Shown: positions 2,538 through 9,599, counted from the first letter of the stretch. The stretch: 10,043 bases of DNA from Oculatellaceae cyanobacterium bins.114 (GCA_033764315.1 JANRJA010000024.1:1-10043); one strand, 5' to 3'. Notes: a model not told the origin generated them from the sequence alone. Made by a program: numbers and translations.

Positions 2538-3365
2538 CTACAGATGGGCAGAAATTACTGAGGTATCCTGGGTTGATTGATTTAATAAATTCTCAATCTC
2601 GTGGGTTGTGAGAGGCTTTGATACAAAACCTCCTTGGACATAAGGGCACCTAAGCAATGACAATCGTTTAAGATGCTCTTTGGTTTCTACTCCATCGGCG
2701 ATCGCTCGCATTGACAATGTTTCAGCCAACTCAGTCACTAGCCTGGAAAACCATAGATTGTCGAAGTTCTCTGGATTCTTGAGTCGTTCAACAAATGAGC
2801 GATCTAACTTTAAGTTTTGGCATTGGAAATTCTTTAGATGCTTGAGAGACGAATAACCAGTACCAAAGTGATCGACAGTCACTTGAATCTTTTTTTGATG
2901 TAATTTCTCCAAAACTGAAATACTATGAATAAAATTTTTTAATAGGGTGCTTTCGTTAATTTCCAATACTAAACATTGAGTATTCATGCTGGTTGCCTCT
3001 AGTGCTTGTTCAATTTTTTCAACCAGATCAGGCTGAAGAAATTGATGATCCGAAAGATTAATGCCAATCATTAGGGAATTATGGGAAGGATAAGTTTTAT
3101 GCCATACGTACAACTGCCGACATGCCTCTTGGAGCATCCAATCCTCTAACATTGCTGTTTCTTCTACACTCATGCAGTTTAAGTCGAAACTTGGAGTTTG
3201 CATTAACGTTATCTCCAGGTAATAACTTGAGGTGAGAATGGTTTTTGGTTGAACGATGTGAGGAGCGAAAAGAGGAACGATCGGTCGATAGGTAAGAAAA
3301 ATCTCTCCACGTTCAACCGTCTGTTGAATATCATGAAATGAAGTAGGAGCAGTCATTGTCGCCAT
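2538..3365 (-). CDS. Stand-alone EAL-domain protein, degenerate (probably lacking c-di-GMP phosphodiesterase activity)
   Basis: EAL-fold motifs FLTYRPIV, INLS, LEINES, DHFGTGYSSL, LKLDRSFV, ADGVET and QGGFVSKP are present, with several catalytic positions substituted. Lies 49 bp upstream of the kinase on the same strand. Confidence 0.88.
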   Translation of the reverse strand: MATMTAPTSFHDIQQTVERGEIFLTYRPIVPLFAPHIVQPKTILTSSYYLEITLMQTPSFDLNCMSVEETAMLEDWMLQEACRQLYVWHKTYPSHNSLMIGINLSDHQFLQPDLVEKIEQALEATSMNTQCLVLEINESTLLKNFIHSISVLEKLHQKKIQVTVDHFGTGYSSLKHLKNFQCQNLKLDRSFVERLKNPENFDNLWFSRLVTELAETLSMRAIADGVETKEHLKRLSLLRCPYVQGGFVSKPLTTHEIENLLNQSTQDTSVISAHL

Positions 3366-3466
3366 TGTCTTAACCGTTAGGTAACTTTTATTGCTGTGTC
3401 AAGTTCGTCAAAGAAAGATTCTCTTGGAAGTGGGTTGAAAAGTGAGTATGCCTCGAAAAACTAGGC

Positions 3467-3545
3467 GATCCCCTTTCGGCTTTTTATGGAGAAAAGGAGA
3501 ACTGAACTTAAAGTCCCTTTTCTCAGTGGAAGTTTAGGTGAATCT
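3467..3545. repeat. Degenerate copy of a cyanobacterial short palindromic dispersed repeat
   Basis: GATCCCC...GAGAAAAGGAGAACTGAACTTAAAGTCCCTTTTCTC...TTTAGGTGAATCT with a 9-bp stem (3489-3497 / 3516-3524). Resembles, from memory, the ATCCCCC..AAGGGGG..AAAGTCCCCCTT..TTTAGGGGGATCT intergenic repeats of filamentous cyanobacteria. Confidence 0.5.
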
Positions 3546-3650
3546 ATATTTTTCACTAATAGCGATAGAATTTTCATCTGCTGCTCTAGAACTAACGGGC
3601 TTACAAGGCTGAACTGAGCCATTAACGTTAAATCCTCTGTTTCTAACCAA

Positions 3651-3709
3651 AGTTTAGTAACTTGAGGTGTTAATCGTCTGTGATAAAAAAGAGTTTAAAG
3701 AAGTCTGAA
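3651..3709 (-). promoter_or_regulatory. Putative promoter/operator region for the EAL-kinase operon
   Basis: On the minus strand, TTCAGACTTCTTTAAACTCTTTT (3709-3687) is followed 30 nt later by a -10-like TAAACT (3656-3651). The motif is 17/23 identical to 202-224 upstream of the DsbA-like gene. Confidence 0.3.
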
Positions 3710-3806
3710 TTTGAGCACTCATCTGGTTATAAGCTCTTATGCTTAATCATAAGCCCATGTTATTGAAGATTAAAGAGTTATAAATTGTCACAATTTGTTG
3801 AGATCG

Positions 3807-5198
3807 ATGCAACCAGCAGTAACAGTTGAAGAAGGACTATGGCTTGTGGAGACGGCGATTCAACCCGATCGCTTAAGTGATTTGCAGGAATTGATCTTTC
3901 GGCAGTGTTGGGCGGGCTTGACCTATCAACAGATCGCCGAAGAAGCAGGATACGATCCAGATTACGTGCGGGTTACTGGTTCTCGACTCTGGCAATCTCT
4001 TTCGATCGCGTGTGGTGAGAAAATTACAAAAAATAACCTTCAAGTTACTTTGCGCCGATATAAGCAACAGCATGACCACTTAAGCGATGCGAAGATACTC
4101 CCACCTAATAACCATCATTCTTCTCAGCTACAAAAACTTCCATCTTTATCATCCGAGTTCAATTTCAATTCATTTCATCTAGAATCACTTGAAGGACCTG
4201 TGCCAATTGAGTCTCCGTTTTATGTCGAGCGTCCCTTTACTGACGAGTATGTTCATGCTGAAATTTCTAAACCAGGAGCATTAGTGCGAATTAAAGCCCC
4301 AAAACAGTACGGTAAAACCTCCCTACTCATTCGAGCTTTAGCAAAAGCGGGGCAACTGGGGTGCAAAACAGCACGACTCAACTTTCACCATGCCGATAGT
4401 TCGACACTTAACAGCTTGAATAGCTTACTGCGTTGGTTTTGCGCCAATCTCACCCACCAGCTTGGGCTAGAACTGAGGTTGGATGACTATTGGGATGAAG
4501 ATTTGGGTAGTAAAGTGAGTTGTACGACTTATTTACAAGGCTATCTATTGGAGCAGTTGCAATGCCCGCTTGTTTTAGCACTGGATGAAGTCAATGTGAT
4601 CTTTGAATATCCTACTGTTGCTCAAGATTTTTTGCCCTTGTTGCGCTTTTGGCATGAGGAGGCGAACAATTTAGCAGTTTGGGGGCACTTACGTATGGTG
4701 GTATCCCACTCGACGGAGGTTTATGTTCCTTTGAACTTGAACCAGTCGCCATTTAATGTAGGCTTGCCAATTAAGCTAAAACCTTTTAGCCTTAGCCAAA
4801 TTCAAGATTTGGCCCAACGCCATCAAATAGGTGAGAGCCTGACAGAAACCACTTTTCTGAATGCGCTCCACCAACTCACCAATGGGCATCCCTATTTAAT
4901 CCGCCTTGCCCTACACACGTTGGCGCAGGGAGAAATTGATGGAGAACTCTTGCTCCAGGATGCGTCAACCTCAGCGGGAATATATGCCAATCATTTGCAG
5001 GGGCATTTAGCGATGTTGCAACAGCATCCAGAGTTAGCCGCCGATTTTCAAGCTGTGATTCAAGCCGATCGACCGATTAGAATTGATACGATCGCAGCTT
5101 ATAAACTACAAAGTATGGGGTTGTTGCGTCTACAGGGAGATGAGGTCATCCCCAGTTGTGACCTGTATCGATTGTATTTTCAAAATCGTTTGAGTTAA
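3807..5198 (+). CDS. AAA_35-type P-loop NTPase with N-terminal HTH-like domain
   Basis: N-terminal LSDLQELIFRQCWAGLTYQQIAEEAGYDPDYVR..GSRLWQSLS..GEKITKNN is HTH-like and typical of cyanobacterial NB-ARC/AAA_35 proteins. Also GPVPIESPFYVER, Walker A APKQYGKTS, Walker B LVLALDEVN, QSPFNVG, LTNGHPYL and C-terminal CDLYRLYF. ATG at 3807 is preferred over the TTG at 3795. Confidence 0.88.
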   Translation: MQPAVTVEEGLWLVETAIQPDRLSDLQELIFRQCWAGLTYQQIAEEAGYDPDYVRVTGSRLWQSLSIACGEKITKNNLQVTLRRYKQQHDHLSDAKILPPNNHHSSQLQKLPSLSSEFNFNSFHLESLEGPVPIESPFYVERPFTDEYVHAEISKPGALVRIKAPKQYGKTSLLIRALAKAGQLGCKTARLNFHHADSSTLNSLNSLLRWFCANLTHQLGLELRLDDYWDEDLGSKVSCTTYLQGYLLEQLQCPLVLALDEVNVIFEYPTVAQDFLPLLRFWHEEANNLAVWGHLRMVVSHSTEVYVPLNLNQSPFNVGLPIKLKPFSLSQIQDLAQRHQIGESLTETTFLNALHQLTNGHPYLIRLALHTLAQGEIDGELLLQDASTSAGIYANHLQGHLAMLQQHPELAADFQAVIQADRPIRIDTIAAYKLQSMGLLRLQGDEVIPSCDLYRLYFQNRLS

Positions 5199-5218
5199 TC
5201 ATTGTCCTGGACACTTCT

Positions 5219-8200
5219 ATGCCTACTCTTTCTCATGCGGCTTATCACTATCAGGTGGGTGGAAGTTTAGGGTTGCAAGCTTTGACATACGTAGCACGAC
5301 AGGCAGACGAAGAACTTTATCAGGCTTTGTTAGCGAGAGAATTTTGCTATGTCTTCAACAGCCGTCAGATGGGAAAGTCGAGTTTGCGAGTGCGGGTAAA
5401 GCATCGACTTCAGCAGGCAGGTTGTTATTGTGCTTCGATCGACATGACCAGTATTGGCAGCGAAACGATTACCGCCGAGCAGTGGTATCGCGGCATTGCG
5501 GCTGAACTGTGGCGTAGCTTCGACCTGATGAGTAAAACGCCTTTCAAAACCTGTTGGCAAGAACAGGAAGGATTGTCTCCTGTACAGCGGTTAAGCGTAT
5601 TTCTCGAAGATGTGTTGTTGAAGTGGCTCTCCGATGCTCCTATCTTTATCTTTGTCGATGAAATTGATAGTGTCCTCAGCCTTAACTTTCCGGTCGATGA
5701 CTTTTTTGCTATGTTGCGGTTTTGTTATAACTACCGCGCTGACAATTCTGAATTTCATCGGTTGACCTTTGCTTTATTTGGAGTGGCAACACCATCAAAC
5801 TTAATCAGCGATCGCACTCGTACTCCATTTAACATCGGTCGAGCTATCAACTTGCATGGTATTCAACTGAGTGAAGCACAACCCTTATTACCGGGGTTGG
5901 CAGAATGGGTGCGTCATCCAGAGTTGACCTTGATGGAGATCTTGAGTTGGACAATGGGGCAACCCTTTCTCACTCAGAAACTTTGTCAACTTGTGGTGGA
6001 GCATTATCAACAAAATAGCTCGTCCCACCTACGTGTTAAATCGCCCACTCAAGAAGCAGCCATCATTGAATACGTTGTTCAGTCACAAATGATTACTTCA
6101 TGGGAAACGCAGGATGAACCGGAACATCTCAAAACAATTCGCGATCGCCTATTGCGGGATGAAACTAAAGCAAGTGTTTTGTTAGGGCTATATCAGCAGG
6201 TTTTGACTCATGGAAAATTGGCTGTAAACGCTAGTTGGGAGCAGGCAGATTTGCTTTTATCAGGGTTAGTTGTTAAACGAGATGGCTGTCTCACTGTGGG
6301 CAATCCCATTTATGCTCAGGTGTTTAACCAGACATGGATTGAACTTCAATTAGCAACGCTTCGCCCCTATGCTACCTTGCTTAACGTGTGGGTGCGCTCA
6401 GGTTGCCAAGATGAGTCTCGATTATTGCGAGGACAAGCTTTGCAAGATGCCCAAGTTTGGGCAAAGCATCATCGGTTGAGTGAACTAGATTATCGGTTTT
6501 TGGCAGCCAGCCAGCAGTTAGACCAAGTAGAGCGAGAAACCCGCCTTGAAGCCGATCGCCTGGGAGCGGTTGAAGCTCATCTTACGTTAGAACGCAGAAG
6601 TTCCAGGTATCAGCAAGTTTTGCTTTCCATCATCAGCGTAGCGTTGCTATTGGCAATTTCGTTTGGTTGGGTGGCGTTTGACAAAAACCGTAAATTAGCA
6701 GCGAGTGAACTTCAAGCAACTGTGACCACATCCGAAGCTCTGTTTGCTTCAAATCAACGACTCGATTCACTGGTCACAGCATTGCAGTCGTGGCACAAAC
6801 TTCAACGGTTTGGCAAGGTCGATGCTGTCACCGAATTTCGCATCGATCAAGCTCTGCGGCAATCGGTGTATCGGGGCATGGAGCAAAATCGCTTTTTAGG
6901 ACACGCGATCGTTCCCAGCGTTGCCTACAGTCCCGATGGCAGGCTACTTGTTTCCCCAAGTGAAGAAAACCAGGTTGCAATCTGGAAAGTCGATGGCACC
7001 CACGTAACTATCCTGAAAGGACACAAAGGTTGGGTGAGAGGGGTAGCGTTCAGCCCGGATGGACAAACGATCGCCTCTGCCAGTCTAGATAAAACGGTAA
7101 AACTTTGGCGAACAGATGGAACGTTGTTAAAAACCTTGAGTGGGCATCAGGAAGGCGTTTCTTCAGTGGCATTTAGCCCGGATGGACAGACAATCGCCTC
7201 TGCTAGCTACGATCGCACCATTAAACTCTGGCGACCCGATGGCGCACTGCTGCGGACATTCAATGAGCACGAGGCAGGCGTGCTATCGGTGGCATTCAGC
7301 CCAGATGGACAAATGCTCGTTTCCGCTAGCCTCGATCAAACCGTCAAACTCTGGCGGCTTGACGGCACCCTGCTACGCACCCTGAACGGACACACGAACG
7401 GCGTAGAGTCAGTAGCGTTTAGCCCCGATGGGCAGACGATCGCTTCTGCTGGGCGAGACCACACAGTGAGACTCTGGCGAGTGGATGGCACTCTGTTGGA
7501 AACTCTGGAAGGACACAACGATTGGATTCACGCGATCGCCTTTAGCCCAGACGGAAAAACCATTGCCTCTGCCAGTCGAGACCAAACCATTCGCTTATGG
7601 CGATCCGATGGTGCCTTCTTACAGACCATCGAAGGGCATCGGGGTCAAATTTTTGGGGTGACATTTAGCCCAGACGGTCAAGCGATCGCCTCTGCCAGTC
7701 GAGATGGTACAGTGCGGCTGTGGAAGTTGGAAGAACCCTGGCTCAAGGTGTTATCGGGACACGGAACGGCAGTTGTAGCAGTGGATATCAGTGCTGATGG
7801 AGAAAAAATTGCTTCCGTCAGCGAAGACAATAGCATCAAACTATGGGATAAAACTGGCGAACTGCTCCATACCATTCGAGATGAGGTTGGACTGGCGATC
7901 GCCATTGCTTTTAACCCAGATGGATCGAGAGTGGTCACGGCTGGAGTAGACGGTGCGGTACGAGTTTGGAGTACGAAGGGCGCACTGCTGCAAACACTCA
8001 AAGGGCACGAAGCAGAAGTGTGGGGAGTTGCCTTTAGTCCGGATGGACAAACGATCGCCTCCACTGGGCGCGATAAAACGGTGCGACTCTGGAACCTGGA
8101 TGGAACGTTGCGAAAAACGCTATATGGGCATGAGGGAATTGTGTGGCCCGTCACCTTTAGTCCCGATGGAACCATGCTGGCAACGGGCAGTTGGGATCAA

Positions 8201-8740
8201 ACAGTGAAGCTTTGGAGTCGTGATGGGCAATTGTTACACACGCTTCGCGGACACGATCGCGAAATTAATGAAGTTGTTTTTAGCCCCAATGGAAAAATCA
8301 TTGCCTCAGCCGGACATGATAAAACGATTAAACTTTGGCACACGGATGGCACCTTAATTAGAACCTTGAAAGGACATACCGCAGCCGTTAAAGGGTTAGC
8401 CTTTACCCCGGATGGAAAATATCTGGCTTCCAGTGCCTGGGATAAAACTGTGCGCTATTGGAATGTTGAGAATGGTCAACTGTTAACGACTCTAAACGCT
8501 CACCAAGGTGCAGTTTGGCGAATTGCCATGAGTCCGGAGGGACAACAACTCGCTTCCGCTAGCAGCGATCGTACAATAATCCTATGGAATCTACCTCAAG
8601 TTCTGGATATCAACACTGTTTTACAACACGGTTGCGATCGCGTTCGGAATTATTTAAGCACTAGTTCAGAGATTGCTGAGCGAGATCGTCATTTGTGCGA
8701 TCGTTTTCCTAGTCTTGAGGCTCACTCCAGTTCAAAATAA
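5219..8740 (+). CDS. AAA_35-type NTPase - transmembrane helix - WD40 repeat protein (14 repeats)
   Basis: YQVGGSL..YVARQAD, Walker A NSRQMGKSS, Walker B IFIFVDEID, RTPFNIG, WTMGQPFLTQKLC and SRLLRGQAL. Hydrophobic helix VLLSIISVALLLAISFGWVAF (6617-6679), then 14 WD40 repeats. Starts 20 bp after the previous gene. Confidence 0.95.
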   Translation: MPTLSHAAYHYQVGGSLGLQALTYVARQADEELYQALLAREFCYVFNSRQMGKSSLRVRVKHRLQQAGCYCASIDMTSIGSETITAEQWYRGIAAELWRSFDLMSKTPFKTCWQEQEGLSPVQRLSVFLEDVLLKWLSDAPIFIFVDEIDSVLSLNFPVDDFFAMLRFCYNYRADNSEFHRLTFALFGVATPSNLISDRTRTPFNIGRAINLHGIQLSEAQPLLPGLAEWVRHPELTLMEILSWTMGQPFLTQKLCQLVVEHYQQNSSSHLRVKSPTQEAAIIEYVVQSQMITSWETQDEPEHLKTIRDRLLRDETKASVLLGLYQQVLTHGKLAVNASWEQADLLLSGLVVKRDGCLTVGNPIYAQVFNQTWIELQLATLRPYATLLNVWVRSGCQDESRLLRGQALQDAQVWAKHHRLSELDYRFLAASQQLDQVERETRLEADRLGAVEAHLTLERRSSRYQQVLLSIISVALLLAISFGWVAFDKNRKLAASELQATVTTSEALFASNQRLDSLVTALQSWHKLQRFGKVDAVTEFRIDQALRQSVYRGMEQNRFLGHAIVPSVAYSPDGRLLVSPSEENQVAIWKVDGTHVTILKGHKGWVRGVAFSPDGQTIASASLDKTVKLWRTDGTLLKTLSGHQEGVSSVAFSPDGQTIASASYDRTIKLWRPDGALLRTFNEHEAGVLSVAFSPDGQMLVSASLDQTVKLWRLDGTLLRTLNGHTNGVESVAFSPDGQTIASAGRDHTVRLWRVDGTLLETLEGHNDWIHAIAFSPDGKTIASASRDQTIRLWRSDGAFLQTIEGHRGQIFGVTFSPDGQAIASASRDGTVRLWKLEEPWLKVLSGHGTAVVAVDISADGEKIASVSEDNSIKLWDKTGELLHTIRDEVGLAIAIAFNPDGSRVVTAGVDGAVRVWSTKGALLQTLKGHEAEVWGVAFSPDGQTIASTGRDKTVRLWNLDGTLRKTLYGHEGIVWPVTFSPDGTMLATGSWDQTVKLWSRDGQLLHTLRGHDREINEVVFSPNGKIIASAGHDKTIKLWHTDGTLIRTLKGHTAAVKGLAFTPDGKYLASSAWDKTVRYWNVENGQLLTTLNAHQGAVWRIAMSPEGQQLASASSDRTIILWNLPQVLDINTVLQHGCDRVRNYLSTSSEIAERDRHLCDRFPSLEAHSSSK
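6899..8590 (+). repeat. WD40 repeat array, 14 units of about 41 aa (about 123 bp)
   Basis: Counted 14 GH..V..VAFSPDG..IASAS.D.T(V/I)(K/R)LW-type units. DNA-level similarity is visible, e.g. recurring TT(C/T)AG(C/T)CCNGA(C/T)GG. Confidence 0.93.
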
Positions 8741-8848
8741 GGCATTGCGGAATAGACTTGTTGTAAAATAAGGGATGAGCACGGGGGTAGTGGACTAAAC
8801 CTGTGGAAATGAAGGAAACTGAAAGAGTGATTTACCTGAGAATTTGAC

Positions 8849-9139
8849 ATGGTACTTGAACCGGTTGTTTGTCCAGGTTGTGGAAGTAGTGATGGGGTTA
8901 AACATGGACAATCAGCAGAGGGCAAACAACGCTACAAGTGTCGCAATTCTGAGTGTTCTCGTTGCACCTTTATTCAAACTTATGCCTATCGTGGGTATCT
9001 GCCCGAGGTCAAGCGGCAGATCAGCGATATGGCGGTCAATGGTAGTGGGATTCGTGACACTGCACGAGTGCTCAAAATTAGCCGCACAACGGTGAGCCAA
9101 ACATTAAAAAAAAGAACATCTCTTGAAAGCAGTCAATGA
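8849..9139 (+). CDS. insA: IS1-family InsA (zinc finger + HTH; transposase N-terminal part)
   Basis: CPGC...GKQRYKCRNSEC zinc-finger motif and GSGIRDTARVLKISRTTV HTH; ends just past the A8 run at 9106-9113. Confidence 0.92.
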   Translation: MVLEPVVCPGCGSSDGVKHGQSAEGKQRYKCRNSECSRCTFIQTYAYRGYLPEVKRQISDMAVNGSGIRDTARVLKISRTTVSQTLKKRTSLESSQ

Positions 9140-9599
9140 AGCCCGTTTGGCAGAACTTGAACCCGCTCAAACCATCGTCCGTCTTTGTCAGTGGGAAGAT
9201 TTAGAGGTCGAAGCAGATGAAATGTGGAGTTTTGTTGGTTCCAAGCAGCAGCAACGGTGGTTATGGCACGCAATTGACCATCATACTGGTGAAGTGCTTG
9301 CTTATGTCTTATCCAATCATCAGGACGAGGCTTTCCTCCAACTCAAATCGTTGTTAGAACCCTTTGGAGTCATGCAGTTTTACACCGATGACTGGGGAGC
9401 TTATGAACGGCAGATTGATCCGGCTTTGCACACCGTTGGCAAACGTAATACTCAAAAGATTGAACGTAAGCACTTAACCTTACGCACTCGGATTAAACGT
9501 TTAGCCCGTAAGACCATTTGCTTTTCTAAGTCGATACGGATGCATGATATTGTCATTGGCTTGTTCATTAACCGCTATGAGTTTGGTATGGTTACTTAA
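9108..9599 (+). CDS. insB: IS1-family InsB (DDE catalytic domain), presumably expressed as a frameshift fusion with InsA
   Basis: EADEMWSFVG, WLWHAID, FYTDDW, TQKIERKHLTLRTRIKRLARKTICFSKS. The frame is open from 9108, just after TAA 9105-9107; the ORF track starts it at TTG 9123. Confidence 0.92.
   Translation, partial: KKEHLLKAVNEARLAELEPAQTIVRLCQWEDLEVEADEMWSFVGSKQQQRWLWHAIDHHTGEVLAYVLSNHQDEAFLQLKSLLEPFGVMQFYTDDWGAYERQIDPALHTVGKRNTQKIERKHLTLRTRIKRLARKTICFSKSIRMHDIVIGLFINRYEFGMVT

Follow-up and report, generated by a model that had tools for sequence, protein, structure and literature searches.

What could two neighbouring genes do together when both encode related nucleoside triphosphatase (NTPase) domains, one joined to a helix-turn-helix (HTH)-like domain and the other to a predicted membrane helix and a long array of repeats? 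This question is raised by two genes, here called gene A and gene B, in Oculatellaceae cyanobacterium bins.114 (GCA_033764315.1). The stretch of DNA analysed, referred to as the window, is the whole of contig JANRJA010000024.1, which has 10,043 bases and is one (C248) of the 251 contigs of a 6.6-Mb draft genome. Gene A (3807..5198, + strand) encodes 463 residues from its ATG codon, with an alternative TTG start at 3795 (open reading frame 3795/3807-5198), and gene B (5219..8740, + strand) encodes 1173 residues. The original prediction of two co-oriented genes 20 bp apart at 3807..8740 is confirmed by these reading frames and by the 20-base spacer between them (5199..5218), in which a promoter and terminator scan found no terminator-like site. 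We find that the two genes form a recurrent two-gene, sometimes fused, STAND-like switch that appears to be undescribed in print. The account that we favour, with confidence somewhat better than even, is that A and B represent one copy within a large family, mainly cyanobacterial, of split STAND/NLR-like switches, in which the protein of gene B would receive the input and that of gene A would deliver the output.

Two AAA_35 module types

Gene A matches the Pfam family AAA_35 (PF14516) with an E-value of 4e-139 and 463 bits over residues 133-464. A scan of full-length gene B is dominated by WD40-type matches; when its first 560 residues are scanned alone, a match to the same family becomes visible at an E-value of 3e-26 and 92 bits, covering residues 15-293 and positions 4-274 of the 331-position model. 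Both values lie above the family cut-off of 27 bits. Aligned with one another, the two proteins are 25% identical over 235 residues (E-value 1e-11), and all five motif pairs on which the proposal of paralogous NTPase domains had been built are readable in the translations. We refer to strong AAA_35 matches as type 1 and to weak, divergent ones as type 2. Across the family, scores against the Pfam model are bimodal, falling above 300 bits or below 140 bits. Hidden Markov models (HMMs) that we built for each type from the module copies in the window's genome separate the two cleanly, with 465-579 bits for a module of the model's own type and 52-127 bits for one of the other type. The gene A module, which scored 464.5 bits in the genome search, reaches 533 bits with the type-1 HMM, and the gene B module scores 637 bits with the type-2 HMM versus 78 bits with the type-1 HMM. 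As judged from these sequence comparisons, the two module types are anciently diverged.

The type-1 module of gene A (4191..5186) comprises nucleotide-binding, helical and winged-helix domains, with GKT as its Walker A and LDEV as its Walker B motif. The type-2 module of gene B (5219..6439), which is longer than the Pfam match, has GKS and DEID at these positions. Residues G169 and K170 of the type-1 Walker A motif are invariant across 59 type-1 sequences, and G52, K53, D147, E148 and D150 are invariant across 48 type-2 homologues. Walker B is altered in a few type-1 paralogues (LNEV, LDNT, LDQV). Read from these alignments, the NTP-binding motifs are intact in both A and B. Type-2 modules have a nearly invariant arginine in the motif RTPFNIG (gene B residues 201-207), immediately ahead of strand five of the NTPase core, where type 1 reads QSPFNVG (gene A residues 313-319); this arginine may be a one-sided, asymmetric arginine finger.

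An AlphaFold2 model of gene A built with 59 homologues has a mean predicted local distance difference test (pLDDT) score of 90.9. In order from the N-terminus come a domain of five helices, a disordered linker (residues 99-117), P-loop and helical domains and, last, a small winged-helix-like unit of a helix, two strands and a helix. The STAND architecture of P-loop NTPase, helical domain and winged helix is present in this model. When the type-1 module was compared with solved structures using Foldseek, the best matches were the archaeal AAA+ proteins 2fna and 2qen (E-value 9e-9), followed by ORC2/Cdc6 and then by CED-4, NRC4, NRC3, Dark, Apaf-1, Avs3, Sr35 and Roq1 at E-values of about 1e-6, so that the classic STAND proteins trail 2fna/2qen and ORC2/Cdc6 by one or two orders of E-value. 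The predicted fold of the type-1 module is STAND/ORC-like. Searched by sequence against solved structures, gene A has no meaningful relative (the best is a RecA P-loop, E-value 0.01) and residues 1-560 of gene B have none. Among NCBIfam models there is no match for gene A, and gene B has only generic propeller matches below the cut-off. The family itself is large: a search with gene A returned 1,804 clusters at 50% identity with E ≤ 1e-30, and some genomes hold at least 20 AAA_35 copies.

Pairing and fusion of the modules

All 21 AAA_35 matches in the window's genome fall within 10 adjacent pairs of a type-1 and a type-2 gene. Each pair combines a strong match of 358-522 bits, which a frameshift splits in one case, with a weak match of 52-130 bits. 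In nine pairs both genes point the same way with type 2 downstream, and the tenth is divergent. Beyond the modules, the type-1 members carry TIR (five), a C-terminal GGDEF (one) or no Pfam output domain (four, three of them with the HTH domain of gene A and one with a different N-terminus). The type-2 members carry 14 WD40 repeats (three), TPR (two), three GAF domains (one), FHA (one) or no known domain (two), and one is truncated. On contig C47 (14661-16279, - strand; 4162-5780 of locus L030), a TIR-type-1 gene is split into two overlapping reading frames of 370 and 189 residues, the result of a frameshift or a sequencing error, and its TPR-type-2 partner is intact. A type-2 gene on contig C145 (103-810, - strand) stops after 235 residues, and contig C85 (22971-23567, - strand) holds a separate type-2 fragment of 199 residues; these may be the remains of a single interrupted gene, or two copies that have each decayed.

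The pair recurs in other genomes. Sixteen of 20 related genomes surveyed have the AAA_35 family, and we counted a pair wherever a type-2 match lay within 5 kb of a type-1 match. Among the matches listed for these 16 genomes, 47 of 63 type-1 matches are paired (41 with type 2 co-oriented downstream, 5 divergent and 1 convergent; one of the 47 may be a single split gene), and the other 16 have no type-2 match within that distance. A second survey covered 80 loci of named genomes, nearly all cyanobacterial, found from an 11-sequence alignment. A type-2 module is present at 43 of them: downstream and co-oriented within 3 kb in 28, upstream and co-oriented in 8, divergent in 3, convergent in 2 and more than 3 kb away in 2. 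Since there are about 10 type-2 genes per 6.6-Mb genome, we estimate the chance expectation of a type-2 neighbour at about 2%. The recurrence of such pairs in cyanobacteria that had been stated at the outset is thus confirmed, at a rate far above chance. Pairing is not universal for the HTH-bearing type-1 subtype, about half of which is unpaired.

The exact layout of the window, an HTH-type-1 gene followed by a type-2 gene with hydrophobic helix and WD40 repeats, is also found at loci L053, L074, L078 and L105, and the same order with no helix detected at L084 and L092. Other layouts occur as well. Five loci (L096, L099, L108, L112, L113) have three genes, namely a type 1, a type 2 of about 680-1,240 residues with few or no WD40-like motifs and a second, WD40-rich type 2 of 704-1,378, mostly about 1,190, residues. 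In Nostoc and Brasilonema (L048, L049, L054, L064, L065, L068), the type-2 module is C-terminal in proteins of about 1,700-1,970 residues encoded upstream of an HTH-type-1 gene, which would place the putative sensor part N-terminal to the type-2 module, the reverse of gene B. Nearly all of the type-1/type-2 loci are cyanobacterial; the one at L099 lies on a contig labelled as an Actinomycetota metagenome-assembled genome, a label that could be due to a binning error or to transfer.

The two module types are also found joined in single proteins. Of 131 proteins surveyed for fusions, 120 of them longer relatives of gene A, 38 have two AAA_35 modules per chain. The order is type 1-type 2 in 12, type 2-type 1 in 23 (often with a cyclase between) and type 1 twice in 3, and there is one odd arrangement. 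At least 35 natural fusions of type 1 with type 2 are thereby known, from sources that include complete Calothrix and Nostoc genomes; among them are type 1-type 2 forms of roughly 950-1,000 residues (P0048, P0052). That the fusions occur in both orders is a classic, if indirect, sign of two proteins working as a single physical unit. The proposal of a split NLR-like system holds to the extent that gene order, complementary domains and fusions all indicate one unit; the unpaired type-1 genes argue against obligate pairing.

Proposed input and output halves

The domains attached to the modules are those of STAND-type fusions to repeat sensors and effectors, divided between two proteins, with sensors on type 2 and effectors on type 1. 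The relatives of type 1 carry TIR, CHAT, GGDEF, class III cyclase, kinase and HTH as output domains, the commoner being GGDEF (13/75), cyclase (5/75) and receiver domains (3/75); trypsin-like and EAD4 domains also occur among relatives. On the type-2 side, the family uses GAF, FHA, PAS, TPR and WD40.

In gene B, the NTPase module is followed by a helical stretch (6440..6616), conserved in alignments, whose arginine-rich end lies directly 5' of the only strongly hydrophobic 19-residue window of the protein (residues ~467-487, 6617..6679; Kyte-Doolittle mean 2.5 at its peak). A Kyte-Doolittle scan of the whole of gene A detects no hydrophobic helix. Further along gene B lie 14 Pfam WD40 matches (6896..8620) with a strict 41-residue period, and the 14 repeats first proposed for this protein are thus present, together with a single predicted transmembrane helix. 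The repeats are near-identical, with differences mostly at a few positions per repeat, and would be expected to form two seven-bladed propellers. A hydrophobic window occurs within 200 residues past the type-2 module in 98 of 120 type-2 proteins and in 84 of the 92 WD40-type ones, a set that is dominated by relatives of gene B and whose members are not independent. Within 15 residues on each side of the helix, lysine plus arginine average 4.3 before and 2.0 after it; the N-terminal side is the richer in 84 of 98 proteins and the poorer in 4. In the window's genome, all five WD40 or TPR forms of type 2 have the helix, and none of the four complete others do (GAF, FHA and two without a known domain). 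By the positive-inside rule, this charge bias would place the NTPase module in the cytoplasm and the WD40 array outside, so the WD40 part of gene B most likely faces the periplasm or lumen. The earlier placement of the ligand-sensing side across the membrane agrees with the extracytoplasmic position predicted from the conserved helix and charge bias. A pair of cysteines near the C-terminus (residues 1139-1160, 8633..8698) is conserved, by homologue motif count, in 85 of the 92 WD40-type proteins; of the seven that lack it, five (P0282, P0287, P0289, P0291, P0293) also lack the helix. The pair would fit a disulfide formed in an oxidising compartment, which is only a hint as to location.

The N-terminal five-helix domain of gene A (residues 1-98, 3807..4100) is separated from the NTPase module by a low-confidence linker (residues ~99-128, 4101..4190), in which pLDDT is below 50 at residues 99-117. 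It has no match in the Pfam copy that we searched, where the best row is HTH_31 at an E-value of 0.084. Its precomputed Pfam label is PF26355, an entry missing from that copy and named HTH_VMAP-M9, 'vWA-MoxR associated protein N-terminal HTH', in the Atlas and Pfam 38.1; we built our own HMM of the domain for the surveys. Modelled alone, the domain has a pLDDT of 91.3. Foldseek rows for it include FixJ, StyR, EvgA, DosR, GerE, LiaR and region 4 of ECF sigma factors. In an exhaustive structure search with VIA-align, the top rows include RcsB (Z 7.4, root-mean-square deviation 2.4 Å over 66 residues) and NarL (Z 7.3), as well as DosR, TraR, GerE and a number of sigma region 4 domains. About 40 of 50 VIA-align rows, at Z 6.0-7.4 and deviations of 2-3 Å over 55-67 residues, and most Foldseek rows belong to the LuxR/NarL/GerE or sigma region 4 classes. 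The domain is predicted to fold as a tetra-helical HTH of the LuxR/sigma-70 region 4 class, as the original prediction of an HTH-like N-terminus implied. As the search tool classes Z scores under 8 as middling, we take the match as one of fold class, with homology unproven. The one feature that would speak for sequence-specific DNA binding is the conservation of basic residues, at positions 55 (83%), 72 (64%), 75 (100%) and 79 (64%). Of the 150 best representatives, 87 have the HTH directly ahead of a type-1 module, and 69 of these 87 have exactly the architecture of gene A; our HMM found the HTH on none of 119 type-2 proteins.

How might such a unit work? We propose that type 2 is the input half. 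Its NTPase module would lie in the cytoplasm and its WD40 part outside, where it would bind a ligand; ligand binding would release or open the type-2 NTPase module, which would then nucleate co-assembly with the type-1 module and so bring the type-1 output domains together. Type 1 would be the output half, acting in gene A through its sigma-4/LuxR-like HTH, at the position where paralogues use TIR or GGDEF. The HTH domains of the A/B pair would then most likely act on DNA as a dimer or oligomer, and no phosphorelay would be involved, in keeping with the absence of any phosphorelay domain from A and B in Pfam scans and with what had been proposed. TIR, CHAT, GGDEF, class III cyclase, kinase and HTH domains need dimerisation or higher assembly to act, and this dependence, together with the STAND-like fold, points to proximity-induced activation. 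A broader generalisation, which we hold only tentatively and at less than even confidence, is that the family gives cyanobacteria a very large, modular set of 'outside-in' split NLR-like receptors, an alternative to two-component phosphorelays, in which a membrane-spanning type 2 would sense an extracytoplasmic ligand with a diversifying WD40 or TPR array and co-assemble in a nucleotide-dependent manner with a soluble type 1 that is specific for it. Co-assembly would directly switch on the output of the partner, namely transcription where this is an HTH, second messengers where it is GGDEF or cyclase and cell suicide where it is TIR or CHAT, and the family would be a bacterial counterpart of the sensor/helper NLR pairs.

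The signal could in principle run the other way, with the HTH of type 1 sensing, for example, DNA that is foreign or damaged, and the membrane-bound WD40 propellers of type 2 serving as an envelope effector or scaffold. WD40 propellers can indeed be scaffolds. A sensor role for VMAP-M regions is proposed in passages of Kaur et al. 2020 (PMC7159879), and nucleic-acid sensing by some STAND modules in passages of Kaur et al. 2021 (PMC8195603). However, among paralogous pairs, clear outputs (TIR, GGDEF, cyclase, CHAT) occupy the type-1 position and classic sensors of small molecules or peptides (GAF, FHA, PAS, TPR) the type-2 position, and we consider this reversed direction very improbable.

Several observations weigh against an input-output switch built from A and B, and we set them out here together with the rival explanations to which they lend themselves. 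The first concern is pairing. At 37 of the 80 loci there is no type-2 module within 7 kb, and 32 of these 37 have at least 2 kb of downstream sequence. By hand tally, type-1 proteins with the architecture of gene A are paired at about 29 and unpaired at about 31 loci of this set. Type 1 is apparently able to work without an adjacent type 2. Some unpaired HTH-type-1 genes have conserved neighbours of another kind. At four to six loci (L058, L062, L071, L044, L050, L061) these are an RPE65-like oxygenase and then a 1650-residue kinase-AAA_16-GAF-HisKA protein, and at six others (L046, L077, L081, L102, L045, L070) a wHTH-ThiF-YcaO protein, encoded downstream and co-oriented in five. These neighbours are possible targets or partners of HTH-type 1; by analogy they resemble the genes next to pathway-linked regulators and mildly favour a transcription-factor role for it. 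The divergence of type 1 correlates with that of type 2 across eight pairs of the window's genome (r 0.67, p 0.026), a result driven by one outlying divergent pair and for that reason given little weight. The support for binding of A to B is indirect and comes from the natural fusions, and the proposed topology of gene B comes solely from the positive-inside rule.

Could A and B simply be independent NTPases, neighbours through an old tandem duplication that form separate homo-oligomers with no crosstalk? They are paralogous, STAND proteins are usually homo-oligomeric, and single genes of both types exist, namely the 37 type-1 loci just mentioned and 12 of 62 type-2 matches without a type-1 neighbour, among the matches listed for the 16 related genomes. 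Against this, the module types are ancient and distinct with bimodal scores, a preferred order and short spacing are kept across genera, at least 35 proteins fuse the modules, in one order or the other, and inputs and outputs are divided such that an output domain is missing from B and a sensor domain from A. We regard independence as improbable.

The second concern is the HTH domain. Its mean net charge is about 0, and a residue count gives -3 in gene A; its fold scores are middling, with Z below 8 and Foldseek E-values of 0.1-1. Among the 150 best representatives, 17 HTH-type-1 proteins have a C-terminal extension. CHAT-bearing relatives are ordered CHAT-HTH-type 1, and one of the five TIR-bearing type-1 proteins of the window's genome is ordered HTH-TIR-type 1. 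In the same genome, HTH_VMAP-M9 heads three STAND proteins outside AAA_35, one with NB-ARC/AAA_16 and TPR (C122:23477-25888), one with NACHT (C40:29986-31434) and one of 1243 residues with 14 WD40 repeats (C21:16088-19816). The Atlas shows the domain on pentapeptide-repeat and TRADD-like proteins and as a stand-alone protein of 81-103 residues. Since the same HTH stands beside TIR, CHAT and C-terminal extensions and heads other STAND families, it is not clearly an output; its distribution would suit a DNA-binding output and, equally well, an adaptor or sensing module.

In a rival explanation, the pair works in the same manner as part of a defence system, HTH_VMAP-M9 being a homotypic adaptor or a sensor of nucleic acids or invaders and growth arrest or death being executed through other proteins, as in the TIR-bearing paralogues. 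TIR domains are present on five of the ten type-1 paralogues of the window's genome, and in PADLOC-DB 2.0 the TIR parts of paralogues match ThsB and SAVED-TIR models. Relatives carry CHAT, trypsin-like, TIR and EAD4 domains; the occurrence of the HTH on NB-ARC, NACHT and WD40 STAND proteins, on TRADD-like and pentapeptide proteins and as stand-alone proteins of 81-103 residues is adaptor-like; the near-identical WD40 repeats with variable positions have the pattern of diversifying sensors; and an IS1 element adjoins the pair. VMAP-M regions are proposed as invader sensors in passages of Kaur et al. 2020 (PMC7159879). On the other side, no PADLOC-DB 2.0 family matches gene A or residues 1-560 of gene B (a type-1 NTPase region elsewhere has one weak PDC-S27 match), and the A/B pair has no enzymatic effector. 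In the window's genome, the HTH is limited to four type-1 and three other STAND proteins, with no separate HTH-effector to recruit. The common outputs of the family are the signalling enzymes and receivers counted above, and the unpaired HTH-type-1 genes adjoin biosynthetic genes in the manner of pathway regulators. We judge the defence role unlikely for this pair, although it is the rival that we take most seriously, and we retain the split switch with gene B as input and gene A as output.

The surroundings of the pair in the window are as follows. Upstream lie a gene for a DsbA/thioredoxin-like protein (435-983, + strand), a GAF-HisKA-HATPase histidine kinase (1064-2488, - strand) and a stand-alone EAL phosphodiesterase (2538-3365, - strand). 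The last two are divergent from gene A, with a gap of 440 bases, and were left out of the A/B unit as they are on the opposite strand. Directly downstream of gene B is an IS1-family element (8849-9599, + strand) with an InsA-like frame (8849-9139) overlapping an InsB/DDE frame (9123-9599). Because the window is an entire 10-kb contig, the assembly was probably broken at repeats. In a promoter and terminator scan of 3300-9000, consensus sites were rarer than in shuffled sequence and nothing informative emerged.

Comparison with known systems

By structure, the best matches of the type-1 module are archaeal SSO1545 (2fna), PABY2304 (2qen) and Orc1/Cdc6, at E-values of 9e-9 to 1e-6 and about 12-16% identity. 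We know of no paired partner and no effector or sensor fusions for these archaeal AAA+ proteins or for Orc1/Cdc6. The A/B pair and its relatives share a STAND-like fold, TIR and protease effectors and WD40 or TPR repeats with Avs, bNACHT and the cyanobacterial TIR/caspase-STAND-WD40 proteins; those systems, unlike the A/B pair, are single-chain.

MalT and the LAL family, AfsR/SARP and GutR are single-chain STAND regulators that combine a sensor, an NTPase and a DNA-binding domain and oligomerise in response to ligand. As in these regulators, a STAND NTPase is joined to an HTH in gene A, and unpaired HTH-type-1 genes stand beside biosynthetic genes; MalT-like TPR and NB-ARC are Pfam matches on the HTH-bearing STAND paralogues. 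In contrast to the MalT/AfsR type, the sensor of the A/B pair would be on a second protein with an NTPase module of its own, and the HTH is N-terminal and belongs to PF26355.

Sensor/helper NLR pairs such as RGA5/RGA4, RRS1/RPS4, the NRC network and NAIP/NLRC4 consist of diverged NOD-type NTPases that are often linked and that co-assemble. The A/B pair likewise comprises linked, diverged NTPase proteins, with sensing presumably on one and output on the other, and would co-assemble in a similar way. It differs from the NLR pairs in its NTPase family, its bacterial host, its predicted membrane-spanning sensor and its HTH in place of a cell-death output. If the modules do co-assemble, bacteria would have a general way of coupling a sensor, external or internal, to almost any output with no need of phosphorylation, and the sensor/helper pairs of plant and animal immunity would have a prokaryotic parallel. 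The swappable inputs and outputs of the modules would then make a compact system for studying NLR-type signalling between chains and a source of parts for synthetic signalling. For annotation, neighbours labelled 'AAA-like domain-containing protein' and 'WD40 repeat protein' are to be read as one unit.

Cyanobacterial STAND networks were reportedly treated by Dunin-Horkawicz, Kopec and Lupas in 2014. AAA_35 proteins are abundant, yet we found no dedicated study of them in the literature searched. For AAA_35 pairs, PF14516 and PF26355/HTH_VMAP-M9, no describing study was found, subscription papers lying outside the search, and 'AAA-like domain-containing protein' led to a single genome report. 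A 2026 STAND survey (PMC13581612) mentions none of 'AAA_35', 'PF14516' and 'AAA-like' in its main text and seven supplement files, and 'AAA_35' is absent from the main texts of PMC7159879 and PMC8195603.

The closest published description that we found, as far as passages of the paper go, is the two-gene STAND operon of Kaur, Iyer, Burroughs and Aravind (2021, eLife; PMC8195603). These passages present the operon as mobile, its two STAND modules being predicted to form a hetero-multimer and its effectors being GT4 or HEPN, and as coming from a family near the CR-ATPases and S29/Dap3, in which the effector-bearing module has eroded NTP-binding motifs. Compared by description only, the A/B modules differ in belonging to AAA_35 and in both keeping Walker A and B; as eroded motifs are not a feature of the A/B pair, we did not file it with that operon. 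Pfam results for the AAA_35 relatives contain no GT4 or HEPN domains. The outputs of type 1 are instead HTH, TIR, GGDEF, cyclase and CHAT, and sensor repeats, in many cases preceded by a membrane helix, are found on its partner. What the two systems share, to judge from the same passages, is a pair of adjacent genes that both encode STAND-type modules, with variable effectors on one of the two proteins.

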